The translations under genes were made by a program, and so were the position numbers. DNA of 63,416 nt, counting the filler, from Chrysochromulina tobinii (Eukaryota): assembly GCA_001275005.1 (NCBI GenBank). It is 5 parts of 5 records of this genome, joined end to end, with 100 filler letters (N's around TTAATTAATTAA, not from the genome) between each part and the next. Parts side by side here need not be neighbours in the genome. Positions count along the whole stretch, not along the records: positions 23,153 to 34,127 come from JWZX01001327.1; 4 more parts are not named here. The stretch is one strand, 5' to 3'. Shown here piece after piece: positions 23,153 to 34,227 of this stretch. Below the pieces are notes generated by a model. That model was given only the letters and a program-made list of their open reading frames with translations, did no database searches and was not told the DNA's origin. Each line of letters begins with the position of its first letter. Position 1 is the stretch's first letter.

Positions 23153-23154
23153 CG

Positions 23155-23247
23155 ATGCTCAAGGTGGTCGGCGCGATGGAGATGGGTGGCGGCCTCTTCC
23201 AGGTGCATCTGAGGGAGGTGCCGCTCACCGTCGCCGTCTTCAAGTGA
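23155..23247 (+). CDS. 3' end of a truncated gene, possibly the C-terminal strands of a mono-ADP-ribosyltransferase domain
   Basis: MLKVVGAMEMGGGLFQVHLREVPLTVAVFK-stop at the contig start; the resemblance is from memory of ART C-termini and is weak. Confidence 0.3.
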   Translation: MLKVVGAMEMGGGLFQVHLREVPLTVAVFK

Positions 23248-23715
23248 GCGACGCCCGAGCACCTGTCGACGCCGTGCTGACGGGGCCGCATGGCGCATGC
23301 CGAGGGGCCGCCGCGTGCGGGGTGGGTCTGGGTGATGCCGCCTGGCAGCTCTCCGCCCGTGTGCAGAGCCATGGAAAGTGAGTGTGTGTGCATGACCGTT
23401 CCAGGGTGGGCCCGGTCGCCCGGTGCGTGGGCCGCGTTTGAGAGACTTTGAGGAGCGCGGCACACCATCAAGCATCATGCGTAATTTACAAGGTTGCGTA
23501 TTTGCGATCGTATCCGGGTCGACCGGCATGCAAGACTATACCGTATACGCGAACGCGCCGTGCGGAACGACGCGCGCGATTACCGAAGTTCGGTGGTAGA
23601 ACGAGTACAGAACATGCCGTGACGTAGCCGTGACGAAAAACTCCATGCAGCCGCTCCCACCGGTGGTGCTCAACACACACCCGACCTCAGCGGTCCTGTG
23701 CCTCCTCGCTGGGCG

Positions 23716-26700
23716 TCATGCCTGATTCGACGTAGAAGTACCGCCTGCCGCCAGGTTTCCCCCGGCGACGGCAGCGAAGATCGTCGAGCACCCCTCTCGC
23801 GTGTGCGGCGGCGTGTCTCGTCGCGCCGTGTCGGGCGGCGCCGTGTCGGGCGGCGCCGTGTCGGGCGGCGCCGTGTCGAGCGCCCCTCTCGCATGTGCGG
23901 CGGCGCGGCCAGCCGCCAGTAATGCCCGCCGTCATCAGCGATCATCAGCGCGGCTGGAGGGCGCCGTTTCATGTCGCGCCGTGTCGGGCGGCGCCGTGTC
24001 GGGCGGCGCCGTGTCGGGCGGCGACTCGCCGGGGTGCGCGCCATTGTGCATCGATCGGAGCCACGCGCCAAAGTCGCGCGTGCTCGGCGCTTTGAGCGCC
24101 TCCTCCCAGCCAGCCTTCATGAACCAGAGACCCTGCCGCTGATCGAAGACGACCTCGCCGTGAATGTGAACCGCCGAGCCCATGATGATCGACTTATCGC
24201 AACCGGCCTCGCCGTGCTTCTTGTCGCCGCACGGCATCGAGTTCGGCGGGAAGCAGTGCAATGCGTACGCGTGGCTCAGCAGATGGTTCCACAGCTGCCA
24301 CTTCTTCGTCTCCACCTTATCGTCCGAGGGCGGCTTGCTCGTGCCGTGTTTAAGGATGGGGCACGCGCGTGCCACGTGTACATGGGGCAGCACCACAAAC
24401 TTGCTCGGGTGGTACTCGGTGATGCCCCATGCCTTCGACTCGTCCGCAAACTTGGTCGAAAAGTCCGCAATCCCCTTCATGGGAGAGGGCGAATGCCATC
24501 GCACGTTGGCATCGTAGATCGCGTGGTTGATTGCCCATTGGTCGCTCGCCTGCCACAGCGGAACCAGAGGTCGCAATCAATGGTCACACTCATAGGGCAA
24601 TCAGCGGCCGCACCATGTGCGGCAGCACCAGAGGCAGCCGCCAGTGGCCCGCTGCGGGGTGGCCGCCGGCCGGCCTCTCTCGCCTGCCATCTGGGCTGCT
24701 TGGCATGCAATCAGCATGCAATCAGCATGCAATCAGCATGCAATCAGCATGCAATGGCCGGCCGCTCTCGCCTGCCATTTGGGCTGCTTGGCATGCAATC
24801 AGCATGCAATCAGCATGCAATCAGCATGCAATCAGCATGCAATCAGCATGCAATGGCCGGTCGCTCTCACCTGCCATTTGGGCTGCTTGGCACGCTTGGC
24901 CACGATGCGGGCTTGCGTATCACGGAAGATCTCGATCGTGCGCGGGTTGGATCGAACAAAGTAGAAGCCCGTGCAGATGGCGGCGCCCCATTGCTTGACC
25001 ATCGAGATAGGCCGTCCCCAGATGCGCTCACCGATGATATCGCCATCCTCGAGGAGTGGTGCCGGGCTGCGCGCTCACAATCAGAGGTCATCAGAGGTCG
25101 TCAGAGGTCATCATCAGAGGTCATCAGAGGTCATCGGAGGTCATCATCAGAGGTCACCTGCGTAGGAAGATCGCGTCCAAGTCGGCGAAAAGGACGTTGA
25201 AGCCGCTCTCGAGCACGCGCAGACCGAAGCGCTGCCGCTCGCCGATGACGTTGAGCTTCGAAATCATGACCTCGCCGCTCGCAACACGTGGCAGCAGCAG
25301 GGCGGGCGGCGCGTCGAACCGGTCGAAGATCTTGCCTAATTTGGCATCCATGGCGACGAGCACGAAATTCGTCACTTGGATCGAGCTCGCCGCCTGCATG
25401 CAATTGAGCGCGAGGTCGACGAAGTCATCAGAGGTCATCAGAGGTCATCAGAGGTCATCAGAGGTCATCAGAGGTCATCAGAGGTCATCAGAGGTCACCT
25501 GCATGAAATTGAGCGCGAGGTCGACGAAGTCGCCCGTGGCGAAGAGAAGAATGACCGTGTGGCAATCCCATGCGCTCGCGACGGCGCGATGCAAGACGCG
25601 GCGCGCCTCGGGCGGCAACTCGCTCGCATTGCCTCCCATCGCATCGGGCAGCGGCGCGAGTCGACTTCCCGCTCGCGCCGCGTGCCGGTGCGAGGCGCAC
25701 ACGGCCTGTGTCGCAGCGTCGTCCTGAGCGTCGTGCGGCGCTGCGCTGGGCGCCGGCCGTTGAGTCGCAGCGTCGCCCGACACGGCGCGAGCCTGCCGTT
25801 GAGGGCGATCGAGCGCATGGAGCGCTGCGCTGGCGCGGGGCGAGGGCATACCTGTCCGAGGGACAACTAGGCAGCCTGCTCGACGCCCCTTGCACCAGAT
25901 CTTGTCGATGTCATACGTGAGCCGGGGCAGCGCGGCCAGCATCGCCGCGCGCTCAGCCGCGCCCACCCCAGCGCTCACCCTAACCGCCCCGCCGCCCTGC
26001 GCCCAGGAGAGCGCGCCCGAGGCGCCCATCGCGGCGCGTCCGGCGCCGTGCGTGCAGTTCATCACATCTCCGGCTTCGAGAGTGCGCGTGAGCAGGTAGT
26101 GCGACGTGTACGGTTTGGCCGGGAGCACGGTCAGGTGCAGGAAGCACGCATCCGCGACCGACGTGCCCGTCAGTGTGGGCAGCGCCTTGGCGGCCGCGAT
26201 CTCGCGATCCGAGGTCGCGAGCACCCGTCGCACCTGTGGGGAAGAGGGGCGCCGTGGTGAGCGCTTGCATGCGAGGCAGGGGAGGTCGCGAGCACCCGTC
26301 GCACCTCGGAGCCAGGGAGATTGTAACTGTCGCCCAGGTGGTTCCACTCTCATCATAATCAAGGGAGATCGCACCTCGGAGCCTGGGAGATTGTAACTGT
26401 CGCCCAGGTGGCGCACGCACACGCCGCGCTGCCGTACCTGTGGGGAAGTGCGGCCGCGCCGTGGTGAGCGCTTGCATGCAAGGTGGCGCACGCACACGCC
26501 GCGCTGCCGTACCTGTGGGAAGGGCGGGCGCGCCGTGGTGAGCGCGTGCATGCAGGCCACGAGCGCGCACGCGCACGCCGCGCAGCCGTACCATCGCATT
26601 GAGGTACAGCTGGTCGCACAGGATGCGGCACTCGAGCTTCCGCCGGTCCCACCCGTCCAGCAACGGCAGGTGCGCCGACGACAGGACCATCACACCGCTA

Positions 26701-27518
26701 TTGAAGATGCGCACCCGCTTGACGGCCTCGGGCGAGCACACGCTGGGGAGCGTCGTCTCGAGCGCGTAGAGCGAGCAGAAGGCGCGCCCGTGCATCGCGT
26801 GCCAGCCCTGCTTGTGGAATCCCTCGTACACCGCGCCCAGCTCCTGGCACGGCGTGGCTGCGAACACGTCCGCCGCGTACGGCGAGACTAGCACGTCGTC
26901 ATCAATGAAGAGCAGCTGGTCGTACCGGCGCAGGTACCACTGCAGGAGCGGGAGCTTGATGAAGTGGGAGTTGGCGCCCGCCTGCAGCGTCGCATTCCAG
27001 CTCGCGATCGCCACGTGCGCGAACGAATCCACAACCACGAACTCGGCGCCGACGCGCCGGGCGTACGCCTCCATCGGTAGCCGCGTCACCGCAAAATGCG
27101 AGCGCTTGCCGATCGAGAGCGTGACGACGACGCGACGGCCGTTGGCGATGCAGTGGTGCTCGGCCTTGGGTACGCACGATGCCTCGCTCGGCGCTTGCGA
27201 CTGCGCCGCCGCCGCCACCGTCTCGTCCTCCTCGTCCCGCTGGCCTTGCCGCCTCTTCTTCCACTTCTTCTTCTTATGCTGCTTGCGCTTGCCGCCGATG
27301 GCACGGCCGCGAGTGGCATTGCTCATCCACGGCCGCGGCAGGGTGCCGACCTCGGCGCTCGCGCCCGCCTGCTCGCGTAGCGTGCGGTCGAGGTCGGGCT
27401 CCTGGTAGCCAGAGCTGGGGCCGATGGGGACCGGCCAGATGGGAGCGAGCAGCAGCCAGAGGATGGAGATCACGAGCACCGCATCCACCACGACCAGCAC
27501 GCGGCGCGGAGGCGACAT
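23716..27518 (-). CDS. Multi-exon two-domain glycosyltransferase (GT8/GT34-like plus GT77-like), type II membrane protein
   Basis: Exons 27518-26592, 26437-26375, 26233-25499, 25393-25158, 25066-24871, 24549-24030 and probably 23744-23716 (GC donor; otherwise stop at 23935). All splice phases are consistent. Domain 1: LLFIDDDVLV, IFNSGVMV, CDQLYLN. Domain 2: VLFADLDAIFLRSP, CTGFYFVRSN, SDQWAIN. Confidence 0.8.
23790..24025. repeat. 15-bp minisatellite (gcgccgtgtcgggcg) in two blocks, inside a probable GC-AG intron 23745-24029
   Basis: Repeated units; minus-strand donor G|GCGAGT at 24029 and acceptor GGCAG at 23745. Confidence 0.65.
24550..24870 (-). other. Spliceosomal intron with (TGATTGCATGC)n minisatellite and two copies of the upstream exon end
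   Basis: GT..AG; removal joins KWQ|ASDQW; 24772-24793 and 24684-24705 copy exon 24871-24892 (22/22 and 21/22). Confidence 0.85.
25067..25157 (-). other. Spliceosomal intron made of (TGATGACCTC)n minisatellite
   Basis: GT..AG; removal restores IFLRS-PAPLLEDGD. Confidence 0.85.
25394..25498 (-). other. Spliceosomal intron: (TGATGACCTC)n 5' module plus 33-nt copy of the upstream exon end supplying AG
   Basis: 25394-25426 matches exon 25499-25531 at 32/33; removal joins NFMQ|AASSIQ. Confidence 0.85.
26234..26374 (-). other. Spliceosomal intron containing a 60-nt copy of its own spliced exon junction plus the 3' module
   Basis: 26282-26341 equals exon 26211-26233 plus exon 26375-26411 (59/60); ends GCATGCAAGCGCTCACCACGGCGCCCCTCTTCCCCACAG. 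Confidence 0.85.
26438..26591 (-). other. Spliceosomal intron: two rounds of [downstream-exon copy plus 3' module]
   Basis: 26481-26512 equals exon 26406-26437 (32/32); 26565-26591 is an older copy (25/27); removal joins LNAM|VRQRG. Confidence 0.85.
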
Positions 27519-27797
27519 AAGCGGCGCGATACCCTCGCCACGGAGCACGCCGAGGGCGCATTCCGGCGTGACGATGCCAGAGATCATTCGCAAAAGCGTC
27601 GGAACCCATCTCGTCCTGGTACGCCTAAGTTTACTAATTTGACTTCGACTACATGTATCCCAGGCGTCAACCCCAAACATTGGCTCGATGACAGCTCGAT
27701 GAGTGTGAGGAGAATCGCGCTCACTCGCGTCCACGGACTGGCGCCGACGGACTGGCTCGTGTGCCGAGCGCTGAGCGGACTGCGGAGGCGGTCGACC

Positions 27798-28355
27798 ATG
27801 CTACTTGAGCTTGCGGTGGGCTTGGGGGTCCTATCACGCAGCCTGCTCTGGGCGCGCGACGCCGACTCGCCGTCCGACATCTGCGCCACCACCGTGCACG
27901 GAGGCATGCTGCTCGAAGCGCCGCCTGCGCTCGGGGCGCCATCACCGGGCAGTTACGCGCTCGACTGGGAGTACGGCGGCGACGCACCAGTCGCAGCACC
28001 CTCCGCACCCTTGCAGTCTCGCCTGTACCTCCCCGAAGAGCGCGACGCCACCTTCTGGGCGGGTTGGGCCATAGGTGCGGCACTCTCGTACATGCTCTTC
28101 CACGCCTTGCCTCGCTGCTGGCTTGAGCGGCGGCGGCGCGCGGCGGCATGCGTCGCCCGCCGCGTCGGCGACCGCATCGAGCTCCTCACGCGCCGCCAAG
28201 CCAGCAGCCAAGGATCTGAGTGGGTCGTCCTCTCCGAGCGCCTCGACACGAAGCACAAGGCGCACGACTGGGCGGAGCGTTACCTCGACCACATGATGAA
28301 GGGCGGCGTGTTCGTGGCGGCCAGCGTGGTCGTCAACCACGTTCCGGGCGGCTGA
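27798..28355 (+). CDS. Uncharacterised small membrane protein
   Basis: Signal-like MLLELAVGLGVLS and hydrophobic FWAGWAIGAALSYMLF; divergent from the glycosyltransferase gene. Confidence 0.55.
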   Translation: MLLELAVGLGVLSRSLLWARDADSPSDICATTVHGGMLLEAPPALGAPSPGSYALDWEYGGDAPVAAPSAPLQSRLYLPEERDATFWAGWAIGAALSYMLFHALPRCWLERRRRAAACVARRVGDRIELLTRRQASSQGSEWVVLSERLDTKHKAHDWAERYLDHMMKGGVFVAASVVVNHVPGG

Positions 28356-28774
28356 CGAGGATACGAGAGCTTAGGACGGCACGCGGGGCCTGCGGATGTA
28401 CTGGGAGGGAGAGAGATAGAGAGGCCCGCGCCGCCTCGGTCGCACGGACCACGGTCCGACTCCGCGTACTCGACGCTCGAGCCGTCGAGCACATACGATT
28501 CAAAGCACAGGTCGAGAAGCACTACGGTACGAGCCAGGTCGTTGATGGACAAAATCATGCATTGTTACTCCGATTCTCCCCCTACGCACTCTGTAACCGA
28601 CGTACATGTATTCTCTGTCACGCGCCCCCGTCGCGTGCGTCGCGCTTCACCGCACCGCACGGCACTTGCACGCGCCTATGCTGACTGTCACGCCCCGCCA
28701 CCCGCCAGCACTTGCGTGCTGACTGTCACACCGATAGCACTTGCATGTAGCACGATTATGAGCAGCGCATAGAC

Positions 28775-28837
28775 GGAACTGCTTCTCACCTGTGGGGAAC
28801 TCCTTCTCACCTGTGGGGAACTCCGTCTCACCTGTGG
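28775..28837. repeat. 21-bp tandem repeat x3
   Basis: ggaact[g/c]c[t/g]tctcacctgtgg; the minus strand reads TTCCCCACAG|GTGAGA. Confidence 0.85.
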
Positions 28838-28930
28838 GTGCGTCGAGAGGAAATCGATCGAGATCTGACCTCAGACTACGCCTCTCCACCAGAAGAAGGC
28901 TAACTCTGCAGCCGACGACATTGCAACTTG

Positions 28931-31753
28931 CTATGTCGTGCGCAGCTTCTGGCCGCCATTGCAGCGGTGGTAGGCGAGGACGTAGTCGATGTGCACGTAC
29001 TCGGAGTGGAAGAGAACAAACTCGCGGTAGCGATCGATCACCTGGCCCAGCTCGGCGATCAGCGAATGGTGGCAGATTGGTGGCATGACGCCCGGCACCG
29101 CCGAGAGCTCACGGAAGTTGATGGGGAAGATTTTCTCGCGAGTGTCCATCGAGGTGGCCGACTGGCCCATATGCTGCGTGCGCACGGGGAAGCCGAGGGC
29201 CGCGCGCACCACGAGAACGTAGAAGACGTCCTCCGGGTGGCGCATGGTTCTGCCATACAGCCGCTTGTGCAGCTCACTGCTCTGGTCCCACGCGCTGTCG
29301 GCGCTGACGTACTGATCCGTCTTGCCAACGTCCTCCGCGAGGTAGACGCCGTCGCCGAAGGCGGTGCCCGCGTTGGTGCCCGAGTAGCGCTCGTTCAGGC
29401 CCGTGGACAGCAGAGCTAGCAGCCGATCTGGGTTGGTGCCATGCAGGAGGATGACCTCATTGCAAGCCTCCGAGAGGGTGAAGCCGCGCACGCGATCCGT
29501 CTTCACGGGCAGGCCGGGCACGTAGGAGACATCCTTGCCCTTCCTCTCGAGCAGCTCGAGCTCCTGCTGCACGCGCTTCACGCCGGCCGTGTACCTGTCC
29601 AGGTTGCGTGGATGGTCGACCTTCCACGCACACGCGAGCTTCAGCGAGTCGTACGAGCCGTACTTTTTCGACACGTCCTTGCCCTTGCCGAGCCACTCTG
29701 GGCGCTCTGTCTGGAGCAGCGCCTCGAGGGAGCGCAGCAAGCGCGCATCGGTCTCCGGCAGAAGAGCCCGGAGGGCGAAGCCGTCCTCCTCCAGGGCGAG
29801 ACGAGCCTTGTTCTCGGCGGCCGGCTGTCCGAGCAGGCTGTGGAAGCCCCACGGGGTACCTGTGGGGAAGGGTGGCGCCGTGGTGAGCACTTGCATGCAA
29901 GGCTGTCCGAGCAGGCTGTGGAAGCCCCACGGGGTACCTGCTTGTCCCCACAGCGATACGCGCGCTGTGGTGAGCACTTGCATGCAAGGCAGGTCATCAC
30001 TGGCAATCAACGTACCTGGTTGTCCCCACGAGTTCCACGCGCGCTGTGGTGAGCACTTGCATGCCAGGCAGGTCATCAGTGGCAATCAACGTACCTGGTT
30101 GTCCCCACGAGTTCCTGGTTGTCTCCTTCGCGGCCGGCGCGTGGATGCACGATCCACACTTGTTGAGAAGGTTGTGGAAGAATGCTGCCCTGTCCTCCGC
30201 CTTCTCCGCCGCCTTCTCCGCCGCCGCCTTATCGGCCGCCGCCTTCGCGGCCGCCGCCTTGTCGGCCTTCGCCTTGGCCGCCTCCGCCTTCCAATCCCTG
30301 TTTCGAAGCGCACGGGGAACTCACGCTCTTGGCGCTATGCAGTGGCGCCCATCACGGCGCGTCGTCGCGTGCAATCAGGAAGCGCGAGGGCTTGCGAAGG
30401 GTGGTCGTGAAGATGGCAAGGCAGTCAGAGGCAGTGGAGGCAGCAGCGCCCTCTCCGAGGACGACGGCGTGGGGCGACGGCGTGGGGCGACCGAGTGCTA
30501 CTGATTGCTCGTGAGTGCTCGTGAGTGCTGCCTGATTGCTGCCTGAGTGCTGCCTGTGAGTGCTGCCCGAGTGCGCCCGAGCGCGCCTGAGCGCGCGCCT
30601 GAGCGTGCGTCGGGGCGCTGTCTGTGGCGCGGCCGGCGCGGCCAACCGCAGCCGCAACGAGAGTGGCCACCCAGGCCGCCAGTGCCGCCGACTCCCGGTG
30701 TGCCCATCACGGCGCGCGTGGCACGCGCCCCACTCGGCGGCAATCGTCGCCACGGAAGGAAGCGCAATCGCAAGGCACTCTCACGCGACGCAGGTCGGCC
30801 GTCGCGTCCTCTCGGCCGCATCCCGTGGCGAGTCGCCGCCGTTTGTTCGCCGTCGGCCAGCCATCCGCCGACGGCGTGTGCCCAAGACGGCGCGGCCGCT
30901 GCGTTCGAGTCGCTCTGCTCGTTCGGTCTTCATCGCGTACCTAGGCTCGCTCAGCAGGGCGACGACCTCGCTGTGGCCATTCTCCCGTGCGCAGTCGATG
31001 GCCGTATAGCCGGACTTGTAGCCAGGGACGTCTCGCTCGTCTTCGAAGAGTCGATCGGCGCCCCCTTCGAGGAGGCGCTTGGCGATCGCGAGGTGGCCTC
31101 TGGATGAGGCCTTCATTAGAGCTGTCTGACCGTAGGCGGGCTAGAGACACAAGAGGGGATAAGCGCGAGATCACTCTACGTAAGCAGACCCTTGGCATTG
31201 TGCTGGGAGAGGGCAAGCTCAAGACTTACATCCGTGTCGTCGACCTCGATCGCCTCGGTTTCGAGGAGGAGGCGGACGCACCCTTCGTGCCCTTTGTTTG
31301 AGGCCAACATCAAAGCTGTCCATCCGCCGTCCTGTGGCAAATGCAGCACACGCGGCGTCATCGAGTGCCAGAGCACGCGAGGAGCGTGGGCGAGCACGCG
31401 GGGGTGCGGCGCGCGCCATGCGACGAGGACGCGTGTGCCAAGCTCGGCAGGGCGGCGGGGTGGCGGCGCAGCCAGCGCGGCCGCGCGCGATACAGCGAGC
31501 TCTGGGGACAACGCGCCGTCTCGGGCGAGCGCGGCGGCGAAAGCAGCAGGGGACAACGCGCCGTCTCGGGCGAGCGCGGCGGCGAAAGCAGCAGAGGCGG
31601 CGAGGACGCGGGCGCCCACGCGAGGCACATGCGGCGGCGCACCTCAGGATTGTGCCAGTTGACGTTGCCTCCACGCTCGATCAGCCGCGTGAGCTCCGCC
31701 TCGTTGCCGTTCCTTGCGGCCTCGCACACGGCCTTGCCCATCGAGTCGCTCAT
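28931..31753 (-). CDS. Ankyrin-repeat plus PARP catalytic domain protein (tankyrase-like architecture), 5 exons, 514 aa
   Basis: Exons 31753-31643, 31331-31230, 31140-30941, 30297-30095, 29859-28931 (1545 nt, phases consistent, all GT-AG). Ankyrin motifs GWTALMLASNKGH, GQTALMKASSRGH, GYTAIDCARENGH. PARP motifs LLHGT, AFGDGVYLAE, REFVLF. Confidence 0.85.
29860..30094 (-). other. Spliceosomal intron built from repeated modules and copies of both flanking exons
   Basis: 30016-30036 equals exon 30095-30115 (21/21); 29901-29937 equals exon 29823-29859 (37/37); three GCATGCAAGTGCTCACCAC cores. Confidence 0.85.
31504..31593. repeat. 45-bp tandem duplication within intron 1 of the ankyrin-PARP gene
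   Basis: ggggacaacgcgccgtctcgggcgagcgcggcggcgaaagcagca x2. Confidence 0.8.
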
Positions 31754-32317
31754 CGCGTCCGCCGCGCTTATTACGCCCGCGCCCGCTCGGCCACCTGCGC
31801 ATTCGGGGGGGCACGCGCGGCTCCGCTGTGACGCTCGGGAGGCGGCGGCGCGCACTCCGTCGCAATGCGCATGCAGCGCGCCCATAGGCCCCTCGGAGCT
31901 CGGGTGGCCGCGGCGGCAGCCGTGTGGCGCGAGGGCGCTCGAAGCGACCACGGCGCGCAGTCGAGGCTGCCGCAACGCCTGGCTCCCGAGGCCCCGAGCA
32001 GCGTGGTGTGGGCGTGCGAAGCAGCGGGCGAAGCAGGCCATCGGGCTCGACGAGGGCATTGGGTAATGCGCGCCCGCACGAGGGGATTGCCGAACTCACG
32101 TCCACCGTGCTTTGGCATTGACTTTTGGAGGACCCACACCTGTGAAACGTTTTGTGCAACGTCTGTGAAGTGCCCGTGGGCGGCGCGCGAGGCGTGAGGT
32201 GGGCACTTGTACCTGGTCCACGTGGGCGAACCTCCAAGCGGGTGCCTCGCCGCTCATGCCACTCTGATCATAGGTGGGGGCTGGGGGCTGTGGGTGACAT
32301 TACGGTTTGTCGTTTCC

Positions 32318-32460
32318 TGCGTTTACGCGGTCGGGGGTGCGTATACGCAGAAACTTGTGTATACGCGAGGGGGTACGTATACGCACCCGCTGTGTATACG
32401 TACTACCGCTCGCGTAAACGCACCTACCCGCGTATACGCACCCGACGCTGCGTTTACGCG
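32318..32460. repeat. Intergenic cluster of GTATAC palindromes with a 14-bp inverted repeat
   Basis: gggtgcgtatacgc (32335-32348) pairs with gcgtatacgcaccc (32430-32443); five GTATAC sites in about 100 nt. Confidence 0.6.
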
Positions 32461-32917
32461 GGGACGCGACGAACGCGTCATGTGAGTCGTGTAATCGTGT
32501 TACTGTGATGTGTTCATGTGAAAATAGATCATAGTATTATAATAGTATTACGTTAACGGGGGGCGGCAGCGCGGCACGGCGGCGCAGCGGAGAAACGGGG
32601 AATTGAACCTCCGGACGGTCCGGCTCGCTCGTTCTCGTTTGGGAGGAAATCCTCGACGAGATGCGTCGTCGCGTGCTACGTTGTACGTAGTCCGCAACTC
32701 CGCATGCGCAGTACGGACGCCTATGTGGGGGTCGATACGCACTCGCTCGCTCCCGGCCATGGCTCACAGTGGCTCCCCCAGACGCCACGGCAGCCAGCAC
32801 ACGAGCGCCGCGATCCCCATCTGTCCCGCGCTCAATCGGCAGCGGAGACTGAACGTTCAGAGTGCGTGTGTGAGACTCGGAGGTGAGGTGAGCCCAGAGC
32901 CGCGAGTGCATGCAAGC

Positions 32918-34034
32918 TCACCACTTGTGCTCATACAGCTCTCGATATGGCGTGGGCAGGTAAGGCGAATCACGGCCGGGTGGCACCGTGTACATGCTCA
33001 GCTCGCAGTCGCCATATTGCCACGCCGGTTCGCGGCCGTCGTTGCCATCTGTGCCCCAGTCCTCGAGATCGCTGAGGAGCAGCCGCAGCCTTCCGCCAGG
33101 TCGCAGCGCCGTCTCGGGCAGCATGGCGCCCTTGTCGGGCAGCGGCGCGATCAGGAAGCAGAAGCCCTGCCCGAGCGAAGTGCGACTGAGCGCATCGGGC
33201 AAGTTGTCGAGCGCCGCGAAGGCCTCGTCAAGTGCATCGAGCACCTGTGGGGAAGGTATGGCGCCGTGGTGAGCACTTGCATGCGAGGTCCTCGTCGGGC
33301 GCCGCGAGCACCTGTTGATGATCCATGCACTGCTCCCACTGGCCAAAACGCTCCCACGTCCTCCCACTCGCCTTCGAAGCGGCCGTGCCTCCCGCAGCCT
33401 CGGGCGCCGCCGCCGCCGTTGGCGCAGCCGTCGCGTCGCCCTCAGCCAGTGTCGGCGCGATCACAAAGGACGAGAGGCGCAAGTTATCGGCGGGCGACTC
33501 GCCATAGTGCAGCCATGTCTTGGCGAGTGGCACCGAGAAGATGCCGCGATTGCGCCACCGCTTGCCGGCCGCATCGAGGTACGTATCGATCGTCGGGAAG
33601 ATGTAGCGCGGTTCGCCGTTACGCAGCACCAGCCCAATCGCCATACGAGCGCATGGCACCGGCAGGTCCGCAGGAAGCCAGAGCTGTTCAAAGGATGATG
33701 GAGGAACGAAACTGGCGCCCGAGGTCCAGTCGACGTCGGCTGCAGGCGTCGGTATGCGGGAGACAGGCACACGGGAAGTGCTTCCTTTGCCGTTCACAAC
33801 CCAAATCGGCCACGAGCTGCACGCCTCCAGCGGAAGGGTCTGCGCCTGGAAGGGCAGTGGAATTGATCGCGCAACATCGTCGAGCTGCTCCACACGCACG
33901 TTGCCGGCGCAGATTGAAATCCGGTCGACGAACCTGTCTGGCACAGGCGTATTCCAGCTCGTCGTTTGCAGCGCGGCCGACCCGTGAGCGGCGAGGCAGA
34001 CCACTACGAGCCGACCTCGCCAAGCATTCAGCAT
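32918..34034 (-). CDS. Uncharacterised protein with N-terminal signal peptide (possibly plastid-targeted), at least 2 exons
   Basis: Exons 34034-33312 and 33244-32918 join in phase 0 (HQQ|VLDAL); hydrophobic leader LVVVCLAAHGSAA. Confidence 0.7.
33245..33311 (-). other. Minimal 67-nt intron: decayed downstream-exon copy plus the 3' module
   Basis: First 29 nt match the next exon start at 22/29, followed by GCATGCAAGTGCTCACCACGGCGCCATACCTTCCCCACAG. Confidence 0.85.
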
Positions 34035-34127
34035 GTGGATTCATTCACAACACACCAACACGCACAGACCAAACTCAAACCAAGCGTGAAGGTCGAACAC
34101 CTCGCACACGTCACAGCCGCTTCATTC

Positions 34128-34227
34128 NNNNNNNNNNNNNNNNNNNNNNNNNNNNNNNNNNNNNNNNNNNNTTAATTAATTAANNNNNNNNNNNNNNNNN
34201 NNNNNNNNNNNNNNNNNNNNNNNNNNN
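34128..34227. other. Artificial contig linker
   Basis: N44-TTAATTAATTAA-N44. Confidence 0.97.

Follow-up and report, generated by a model that had tools for sequence, protein, structure and literature searches.

Where new spliceosomal introns come from has been asked for a long time, and transposons that leave short duplications now receive most of the credit for mass gains. A stretch of Chrysochromulina tobinii DNA (the window, 63,416 nucleotides of five joined contigs, filler included) raises this question in a specific form: what is the short sequence that recurs at intron ends within one 11-kb contig, and how did introns in several genes come to share it? The exact core of this sequence, GCATGCANGNGCTCACCAC, occurs seven times, on the minus strand only (26254, 26461, 26535, 29880, 29967, 30046 and 33266), spread over three genes of that contig (A, P and C). 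All seven cores fall within the part at 23153-34127, with none in the other ~52 kb of the window. Allowing up to three mismatches yields nine matches against 0.47 expected, a count that 0 of 100 shuffles reached, which bears out the sevenfold recurrence of the original prediction. Other introns of the same host genes lack the core. An Rfam search of the contig gave a single chance match below threshold, and when viral contigs were scanned for it, the core turned up in one stretch, located at a contig end (L131). The host genes are:

24016..27587, minus strand: host gene A; homologs of ~900 aa contain PF03407 (nucleotide-diphospho-sugar transferase)
28931..31753, minus strand: host gene P; ankyrin-like N-terminus (by eye) and PARP domain (Pfam)
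32918..34040, minus strand: host gene C; 5' end undefined, without a Pfam family

The only named eukaryotic match to gene A comes from Scyphosphaera apsteinii, at 40% identity, and exon 2 of gene C had no homolog among the longer proteins searched. The motif had been described as lying always in the sense orientation, which holds for gene A as judged from its homologs and for gene P as judged from its PARP Pfam match and an RNA joint; the copy at 33245 is presumably in sense as well. This statement is qualified by a degenerate core with a 2-nt deletion on the plus strand at 32908-32924. The five complete copies terminate in CC(C)ACAG (at 26234, 26438, 26513, 29860 and 33245) and GT comes next each time. 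The claim that GT always follows thus stands within the window (5/5) but not outside it, where the 34 modules that depart from the search pattern used are followed by GT in 22 cases, by GC in 3 and by something else in 9. In complete copies 24-27 nt separate the putative branch A from the end, compared with 33-34 nt in two copies regarded as partial, and the CTCAC that had been placed about 24 nt from the AG is therefore in a fitting position.

The module of ~45 nt is only one of two pieces. Each complete module sits 3' of a copy of the exon that follows it, this copy being 13-50 nt long and beginning with GT. The intron consequently opens with a GT-led duplicate of the next exon's first bases, followed by a branch-point and acceptor module ending in AG, and module and exon duplication together form the whole intron. 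There is also a mirror type in which a GT-led filler comes first and is followed by a copy of the upstream exon end that supplies the AG. The acceptor part of the module had been recognized in the original prediction, whereas its donor half, the long duplication of the downstream exon, had been missed, and the two supposedly partial copies are really of mirror design. The units and related features are:

26513..26591, minus strand: Unit A1, 79 nt; GT, diverged copy of the downstream exon start and complete module to AG; stacked on A2
26438..26512, minus strand: Unit A2, 75 nt; GT, 32-nt perfect copy of the downstream exon start and complete module
26375..26437, minus strand: exon, 63 nt; its start is copied into A1 and A2 and its end into A3; ungapped against P0001
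26305..26374, minus strand: Unit A3, 70 nt; coreless mirror type in which a 33-nt GT-led filler precedes a 37-nt copy of the upstream exon end (1 mismatch) supplying the AG
26234..26304, minus strand: Unit A4, 71 nt; GT, 23-nt perfect copy of the downstream exon start and complete module
30016..30094, minus strand: Unit P1, 79 nt; of mirror type, with a GT-led filler, the core and an AG supplied by 21 nt copied from the upstream exon end
29938..30015, minus strand: Unit P2, 78 nt; nearly a copy of P1, its exon-derived AG end being degenerate
29860..29937, minus strand: Unit P3, 78 nt; GT, 37-nt perfect copy of the downstream exon start and complete module
33245..33311, minus strand: Unit C1, 67 nt; GT, diverged copy of the downstream exon start (20/27 nt) and complete module
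25394..25498, minus strand: mirror-type intron with a different filler; GT, 10-mer repeats and an AG supplied by ~33 nt copied from the upstream exon end
24550..24870, minus strand: 321-nt intron; 5' part with filler units of 11-mers, every one ending in ~21 nt copied from the upstream exon end

Three stacked blocks, together holding six of the seven cores, are missing from RNA contigs, with joints exactly at the predicted GT..AG ends. A1 and A2 are removed as a single 154-nt RNA joint (26430>26585; X1, X4), A3 and A4 as a 141-nt joint (X1, X2) and P1-P3 as a 235-nt joint (29855>30091; X1, X2, X3), with all three yielding the same product as GT..AG removal. Only 7-8 letters are common to both sides of these joints, so they are not collapses of long repeats. 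Joints 25392>25498 and 24548>24870, each present in 4/4 runs, likewise correspond to the mirror-type intron with the different filler and to the 321-nt intron. For the three blocks GT..AG removal restores the reading frame, as in spliceosomal GT-AG introns, and the protein is unchanged by removal of the units. The spliced peptide of gene A aligns with P0001 over 135 residues without gaps, spanning both junctions, and the product of gene P is 514 aa when spliced versus 237 aa with P1-P3 retained. C1 is probably spliced as well, as its removal links two open frames while its retention leads to a stop; no C1 joint is among the joints listed (15 of 45 for X1-X4, 15 of 52 for X15-X17 plus X5), and the same 15 of 52 include no convincing empty-site joint at the units of the window. 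With RNA joints ending at 26234, 26438 and 29860, the notion of a reused branch-point, pyrimidine-tract and acceptor cassette is supported, and we are highly confident of the anatomy and splicing described above.

Metagenomes provide 118 distinct module sites in unrelated genes, which include WD40, JmjC, bromodomain, ferrochelatase and ABC genes by Pfam, and these introns thereby show similar sequence at many non-homologous sites, as do Introners in the broad sense. A site-specific duplication (median ~30 nt) above the 99th percentile of shuffled pairings is present at 97 of the 118 sites (2/118 in a reverse-complement control), with the alignment beginning at the first exon base in 86 of the 97; the other 21 sites have no significant duplication. 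Measured without gaps at 82 sites, by a method that is blind to repeats shorter than ~13 nt and leaves 36 of the 118 unscored, duplications span 13-50 nt (median 28.5, SD 7.6), or ~40% of an intron length of 57-94 nt. Duplication and insert length are negatively correlated (rho -0.56), in part artificially, since the two share a boundary. The footprint recurs in a second acceptor family, at 21 of 44 sites. Could these simply be old introns with an ordinary lineage-specific extended branch-point and acceptor consensus, whose duplications came later through unrelated tandem duplication or gene conversion? A conserved core with a varying tract (104 tract variants across the 118 sites) would suit this explanation, as would stacks that are plain tandem duplications of whole units (L015, L123). 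However, it leaves unexplained the start at exon base 1, the lack of the core in other introns of the same genes and a single-copy empty allele, and we consider it very unlikely.

That empty allele (L008) is the counterpart of L057, which carries an 81-nt unit, composed of a 33-nt perfect duplication and the module, between flanks that have 26 mismatches in 1520 bases. Presence/absence at orthologous sites, a further property of Introners in the broad sense, is thus seen in one clean but unpolarised case among 12 aligned pairs. The empty allele does not fix the direction of change because precise loss between direct repeats or assembly collapse could produce it. Unit number also varies within L015/L033, L009/L096 and L040/L079. 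Young perfect duplications, old diverged ones and both filled and empty alleles are all present together, and recurrent intron gain is in our judgment very probable.

As to how the gains occur, our main reading, to which we assign a probability of roughly 55%, is that new introns are made one at a time when a DNA polymerase moves from the gene template to the 3' half of an existing module-bearing intron and then back to the gene. Microhomology template-switch copying combined with selection appears the most likely route, with the odds about even that the switching occurs on DNA. Synthesis would extend ~30 nt beyond a GT within an exon, jump via a few bases of microhomology to the 5' side of a module elsewhere, copy through the putative branch point as far as the AG and re-anneal at the original GT, a step that would be eased by donors themselves being followed by GT. 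Selection would then retain cleanly splicing events that reach about 57-94 nt. Since every new intron could act as a donor, no master element would be needed, and the direct repeats would likely drive stacking and precise pop-out loss afterwards.

Several observations bear on this scheme. Among the 30 sites with perfect duplications of at least 20 nt, 29 different pyrimidine tracts occur and the 5' fillers are ragged, which suggests many donors. At the junctions, microhomology adds up to 30 nt where 6.3 would be expected, with 14 of 112 sites scorable, in a test that used 8 hand-picked upstream extensions and in which 5 sites contribute 28 of these 30 nt. Neighbours more often have near-identical modules (18% of 65 pairs versus 8%), which favours the scheme, but overall neighbouring modules are no more alike (mean edit distance 6.97 versus 6.83, p=0.49), which counts against it. 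The donor in the intronic copy is not improved (2 better, 3 worse, 73 the same). At L028 and L076 the module is followed by CT and the duplication starts without GT (by eye), which fits selection and not targeting of GT. Neither a donor-recipient pair nor an insertion event is among the observations.

A tiny SINE-like element mobilised by a non-LTR retrotransposon via target-primed reverse transcription would account for part of this pattern. Hallmarks of that process are a fixed 3' end, 5' truncation and variable-length duplications, and the fixed 3' end, the ragged 5' end with microhomology and the variable duplications seen here all match. Additionally, non-LTR introners are known, according to section 6 of PMC12130899. 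However, the modules end in CCCACAG with no poly(A) or simple-repeat tail, the diversity of tracts across all sites and within the young ones leaves no master sequence, no partner element was seen, and the fixed end of the mirror type is the 5' one. As target-primed reverse transcription by itself also predicts no strand bias, we view this origin as improbable.

A strand bias is clearly present. Antisense copies are near-absent (3/63 and 1/32 in two counts), and of 68 sites, 10 have Pfam matches on the strand of the module and none has them on the opposite strand. The original prediction had ascribed sense orientation to either an RNA- or spliceosome-linked insertion step or strong selection. 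The strong bias stands, but such a step is unneeded because same-strand template switching together with selection gives the bias too. The near-absence of antisense copies fits an RNA-linked route at least equally well. In such a route partial reverse splicing would join the 3' tail of a spliced lariat to a downstream exon where the sequence is splice-like or, alternatively, a reverse transcriptase would hop between introns on pre-mRNA; the cDNA would stop just past the branch point and be end-joined to a broken chromosome, duplicating the exon start. This would agree not only with the near-total sense bias but also with a fixed end that is exactly AG, or exactly GT in the mirror type, with stacking that is often at existing junctions, with a module that covers little beyond branch point-to-AG and with splice-like sites, given that AG precedes GT at 32 of 82 sites versus 124 of 1448 background GTs and that GTACG, GTGCG or GTGAG opens 48 of 118 exons versus 10% in the background. 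The same enrichments are nevertheless expected from selection for clean splicing, the module reaches at least 14 nt upstream of the putative branch A, and acceptor-less cores and tandem core arrays (L113, L097, L050, L054) show DNA-level copying. Reverse splicing is moreover described, in the accessible text of PMC3443670, as rare and observed only in a Prp22 mutant. Taken jointly, the two RNA-templated forms are possible but rather unlikely.

Equally tentative is a transposase-free, self-propagating cycle tied to the spliceosome, in which the branch-point-to-AG tail of any existing intron would be written into new splice-like sites with a ~30-nt exon duplication and in which, for the mirror form, the GT-led front half of an intron would be copied instead. 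If true, hundreds of introns would exist without a master element, each new one a donor, and the partial-reverse-splicing version would represent the first genome-scale footprint of spliceosomal retrohoming-like gain, polymorphic in living populations. Returning to template-switch copying, it is likely that new introns are made repeatedly through copying of a kind that would escape standard searches for intron transposons. The family gives exact introns from half an intron and a long exon duplication, without transposon ends. As young, old, filled and empty states coexist, gain, stacking and precise loss could be dated and polarised with population data. For these algae, the intronic exon copies may in addition confuse both read mapping and gene prediction.

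Among known systems, the closest in splice logic are the Introner-like elements of Symbiodinium and Polarella glacialis, for which the accessible part of bioRxiv 10.1101/2020.10.14.339549 gives 4-nt target site duplications (TSDs) in classes 4/5 and 8-nt TSDs in classes 6/8/10, with a like pattern in Aureococcus (PMC9860276, Fig. 2B legend). In these elements, as here, the insert brings the 3' splice site, while the donor is formed by the 5' end of the duplicated target and the mRNA stays as it was; like our modules, classes 4/5 also function in one orientation only. In contrast, their duplications are a fixed 3-8 nt per class, and 3-9 nt for known Introners in the sources available, versus a variable 13-50 nt here, and Symbiodinium elements have inverted repeats while ours have none, nor a defined 5' end or master copy. 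A conventional MITE-type DNA-transposon Introner would share this splice logic, but in 82/82 inserts the ends are complementary over a run of no more than 2-4 nt, the duplication length is not fixed as in a short 3-9 nt TSD and the 5' end is undefined. We therefore regard this origin as hardly credible, and it is refuted on terminal repeats and fixed duplication length, barring a longer parent element.

Introner family 5 from a marine Chrysochromulina sp. MAG is likewise from a haptophyte, lacks terminal inverted repeats and co-opts one splice site from the duplication (PMC9860276, Fig. 2C legend), and it resembles our mirror type. It has, as far as the accessible text goes, a 4-nt TSD and whole-intron similarity, unlike the 3'-module introns. 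Because the survey in PMC9860276 is described there as demanding similarity near both intron ends, 3'-module introns, whose 5' 13-50 nt are a locus-specific exon copy, would fail it, and this class of intron gain may thus be undercounted. Intron gain by tandem genomic duplication of an AGGT-containing exon segment, as presented in the available text of PMC3443670, is similar in that duplicated exon sequence gives a splice site and gain is precise. There both sites come from the duplicated AGGT, whereas here the acceptor comes from a shared foreign module and 50 of 82 sites have no AG before the GT. Other published gain models also place filler between direct repeats, and two of them copy existing intron sequence, but they involve short repeats, few cases or proposals, as opposed to one recurrent half-intron filler with long repeats at more than 100 sites. 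Searches of the openly accessible literature turned up no description of long-duplication half-intron modules, although unclassified families in the PMC9860276 and PMC12130899 datasets could include them. The splice logic of this family is the same as that of known Introners, and what is new relative to them is the combination of long variable duplications, no terminal inverted repeats and a ragged 5' end.

Module introns, in which a sequence of ~45 nt supplies a core, a putative branch point, a pyrimidine tract and the AG acceptor, are real, spliced, widespread and polymorphic. The original prediction was that their motif is used seven times, and the exact core does occur seven times in the window, far above chance and always on the minus strand. 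All seven cores lie in the contig at 23153-34127, with none in the other ~52 kb of the five contigs that are joined via N spacers. The five complete copies, which end at 26234, 26438, 26513, 29860 and 33245, are each followed by GT as anticipated. Read on the minus strand, every complete module is preceded by a copy of its own downstream exon sequence, and this copy begins with GT:

24016..27587, minus strand: gene A, with units A1 to A4; exon copy diverged in A1, perfect in A2 (32 nt) and perfect in A4 (23 nt)
28931..31753, minus strand: gene P, with units P1 to P3; exon copy perfect in P3 (37 nt)
32918..34040, minus strand: gene C, with unit C1 at 33245..33311; exon copy matching at 20/27 nt

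A unit of GT plus exon copy, joined to the module ending in AG, measures 67-79 nt, and its excision leaves a single exon copy. The partial copies P1 and P2 and the core-less A3 are mirror images, in which a GT-led filler precedes a copied end of the upstream exon, and this copy provides the AG. Abutting units form AG/GT stacks (A1+A2, A3+A4 and P1+P2+P3), and gene A holds two further introns of mirror design whose fillers are 10-mer or 11-mer repeats. Such intronic repeat fillers are present at 25030-25500, 24668-24892 and many loci; each holds a CTGAT branch-point-like word, they lie nearly always on the gene strand, and exon duplications are often present (the second acceptor family, CC[CT]TCATCAG). 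Intron fillers are absent from the contig at 1-23052, which is intron-poor, has lower GC in 12-18 kb and carries several sugar- or methyl-transferase-like genes (domains Caps_synth, GT61, Nucleotid_trans, PhyH, Methyltransf and SET). The sole named eukaryotic homolog of gene A is from Scyphosphaera apsteinii (40% identity), so the organism is likely a haptophyte.

Several other features surround gene C. A degenerate core with a 2-nt deletion and then an acceptor-like end lies antisense to it at 32908-32937 (plus strand), overlapping its stop codon; this core lacks a duplication and is unspliced in RNA contigs spanning the site. A 545-codon open frame that is also antisense (32546-34180, plus strand), with lower GC3 (0.59) and no Pfam match, is likely a shadow frame. 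Between genes P and C, an imperfect palindromic repeat region of raised depth in sequencing runs (32316-32475) is likely a dispersed repeat.

Contigs from mixed RNA libraries, in which the joined form is visible and neither strand nor level is, skip three intervals with minus-strand GT..AG ends: 141 nt (26227>26369) and 154 nt (26430>26585), each in two of four runs, and 235 nt (29855>30091) in three of four. At all three joints the product is identical to removal of the predicted stack, and only 7-8 letters are common to the joint ends, so the joints are not collapses of long repeats. Across both junctions, the gene A peptide after splicing aligns gaplessly with its homolog P0001, and these junctions are also gap-free against the four other aligned homologs. 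Spliced gene P encodes 514 aa with a PARP domain, while retention of the block gives a stop at 237 aa. No C1 joint is among the RNA joints listed; predicted removal of C1 joins two open frames. Downstream of the gene P stop, three 21-nt tandem units (28775-28838; on the minus strand, acceptor tail plus GTGAG) are unspliced in RNA contigs spanning them (sequencing runs X1, record 5, and X5, record 28) and are possibly module tails too short for splicing or a plain tandem repeat.

A metagenome scan gave 130 module loci, out of an estimated 1300 stored stretches, and these became 118 sites once repeats of one site were collapsed. At 97 of the 118, the upstream match to the site's own downstream exon exceeds the 99th percentile of shuffled pairings, against 2/118 in a reverse-complement control. 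Among these 97 duplications, 86 start at exon base 1 and 35 are perfect. Lengths show no preference for multiples of three (36/27/34). Ungapped measurement at 82/118 sites puts the duplications at 13-50 nt, the inserts at 37-72 nt and the introns at 57-94 nt. The claim that complete copies are always followed by GT holds in the window but not outside it; the search pattern required GT after the module, thus this feature is tested solely on 34 deviating modules, which are followed by GT (22), GC (3) or other bases (9). The sense orientation is supported as a strong bias, the best downstream frame having a Pfam match on the module strand at 10/68 loci versus 0/68 for the opposite strand, with duplicate loci, loci under 1 kb and loci with short downstream sequence omitted. 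Additional cores share the anchor's strand in 60 of 63 cases, and the second acceptor family is on the same strand in 58 versus 5 and has a duplication at 21/44 sites. A sequence search with unit P3 gave nothing similar. One core (L113:143-190) is an exception to the strand rule: it lacks an acceptor, has a 10-nt repeat flanking it and is oriented opposite to the complete module that lies 160 nt from it; in three other loci (L097, L050 and L054) acceptor-less cores form tandem arrays of 3-6 copies within single introns.

Among 12 aligned locus pairs, L057 and L008 differ by exactly one 81-nt unit between flanks that are 98% identical, L040 and L079 differ by three duplication-flanked units, and stack number differs in L015/L033 and L009/L096. 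The perfect duplications suggest young events. Direct repeats permit precise loss or assembly collapse too, so filled and empty pairs do not fix the direction of gain. No empty site was seen in sequencing runs X15-X17, where the module sequence of A4, P3 and C1 is present. High-depth contigs of these runs that lack a 178-nt repeat stretch (30444-30623) within the 643-nt intron of gene P may derive from paralogous copies.

Terminal inverted repeats (TIRs) are absent from the insert, whose 3' end is fixed and whose 5' end is ragged (0-22 nt of filler). Among 30 perfect-duplication sites there are 29 different pyrimidine tracts. Together, these features argue against one master element and for many introns acting as donors. 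Target-primed reverse transcription ranks third as an explanation and appears improbable. The 5' junction shows more microhomology than expected (14/112 sites scorable, against a hand-picked extension set). Near-identical module pairs are commoner in neighbours (18% versus 8% of random pairs), and the overall closeness of neighbouring modules is no greater than random (p=0.49). Target sites are splice-like, as expected under selection as well as under a spliceosome-bound step. An RNA-templated route is the second-ranked explanation and seems rather unlikely. We favour, at a probability of about one half, a route that we infer rather than observe directly: microhomology-mediated template switching on DNA would copy the module into a new site, and selection would then retain events that splice cleanly.

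The portions covered of PMC3443670 list tandem duplication, break repair and RT template switching among intron-gain mechanisms, those of PMC12130899 and PMC11282704 do not mention haptophytes, and those of two haptophyte genome papers (PMC4580454, PMC12480563) contain nothing on intron structure. We found no description of the half-intron plus long-duplication design in the literature searched, and supplementary datasets may list it unclassified. The part available of bioRxiv 10.1101/2020.10.14.339549 describes, in Symbiodinium, Polarella (classes 4/5, 6/8/10) and Aureococcus, Introners that bring their own acceptor and co-opt the donor of a target duplication 3-8 nt long. The available part of PMC9860276 gives duplications of 3-9 bp and reports Introner families in haptophyte MAGs, including one Chrysochromulina family with a 4-nt duplication; its screen called for similarity near both intron ends, which module introns lack. 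They differ from the TIR-type Introner and fall outside the operational definition, whereas they work in the manner of TSD-co-opting Introners. Module introns are a variant among intron-generating elements, set apart by the unusual length of their duplications.
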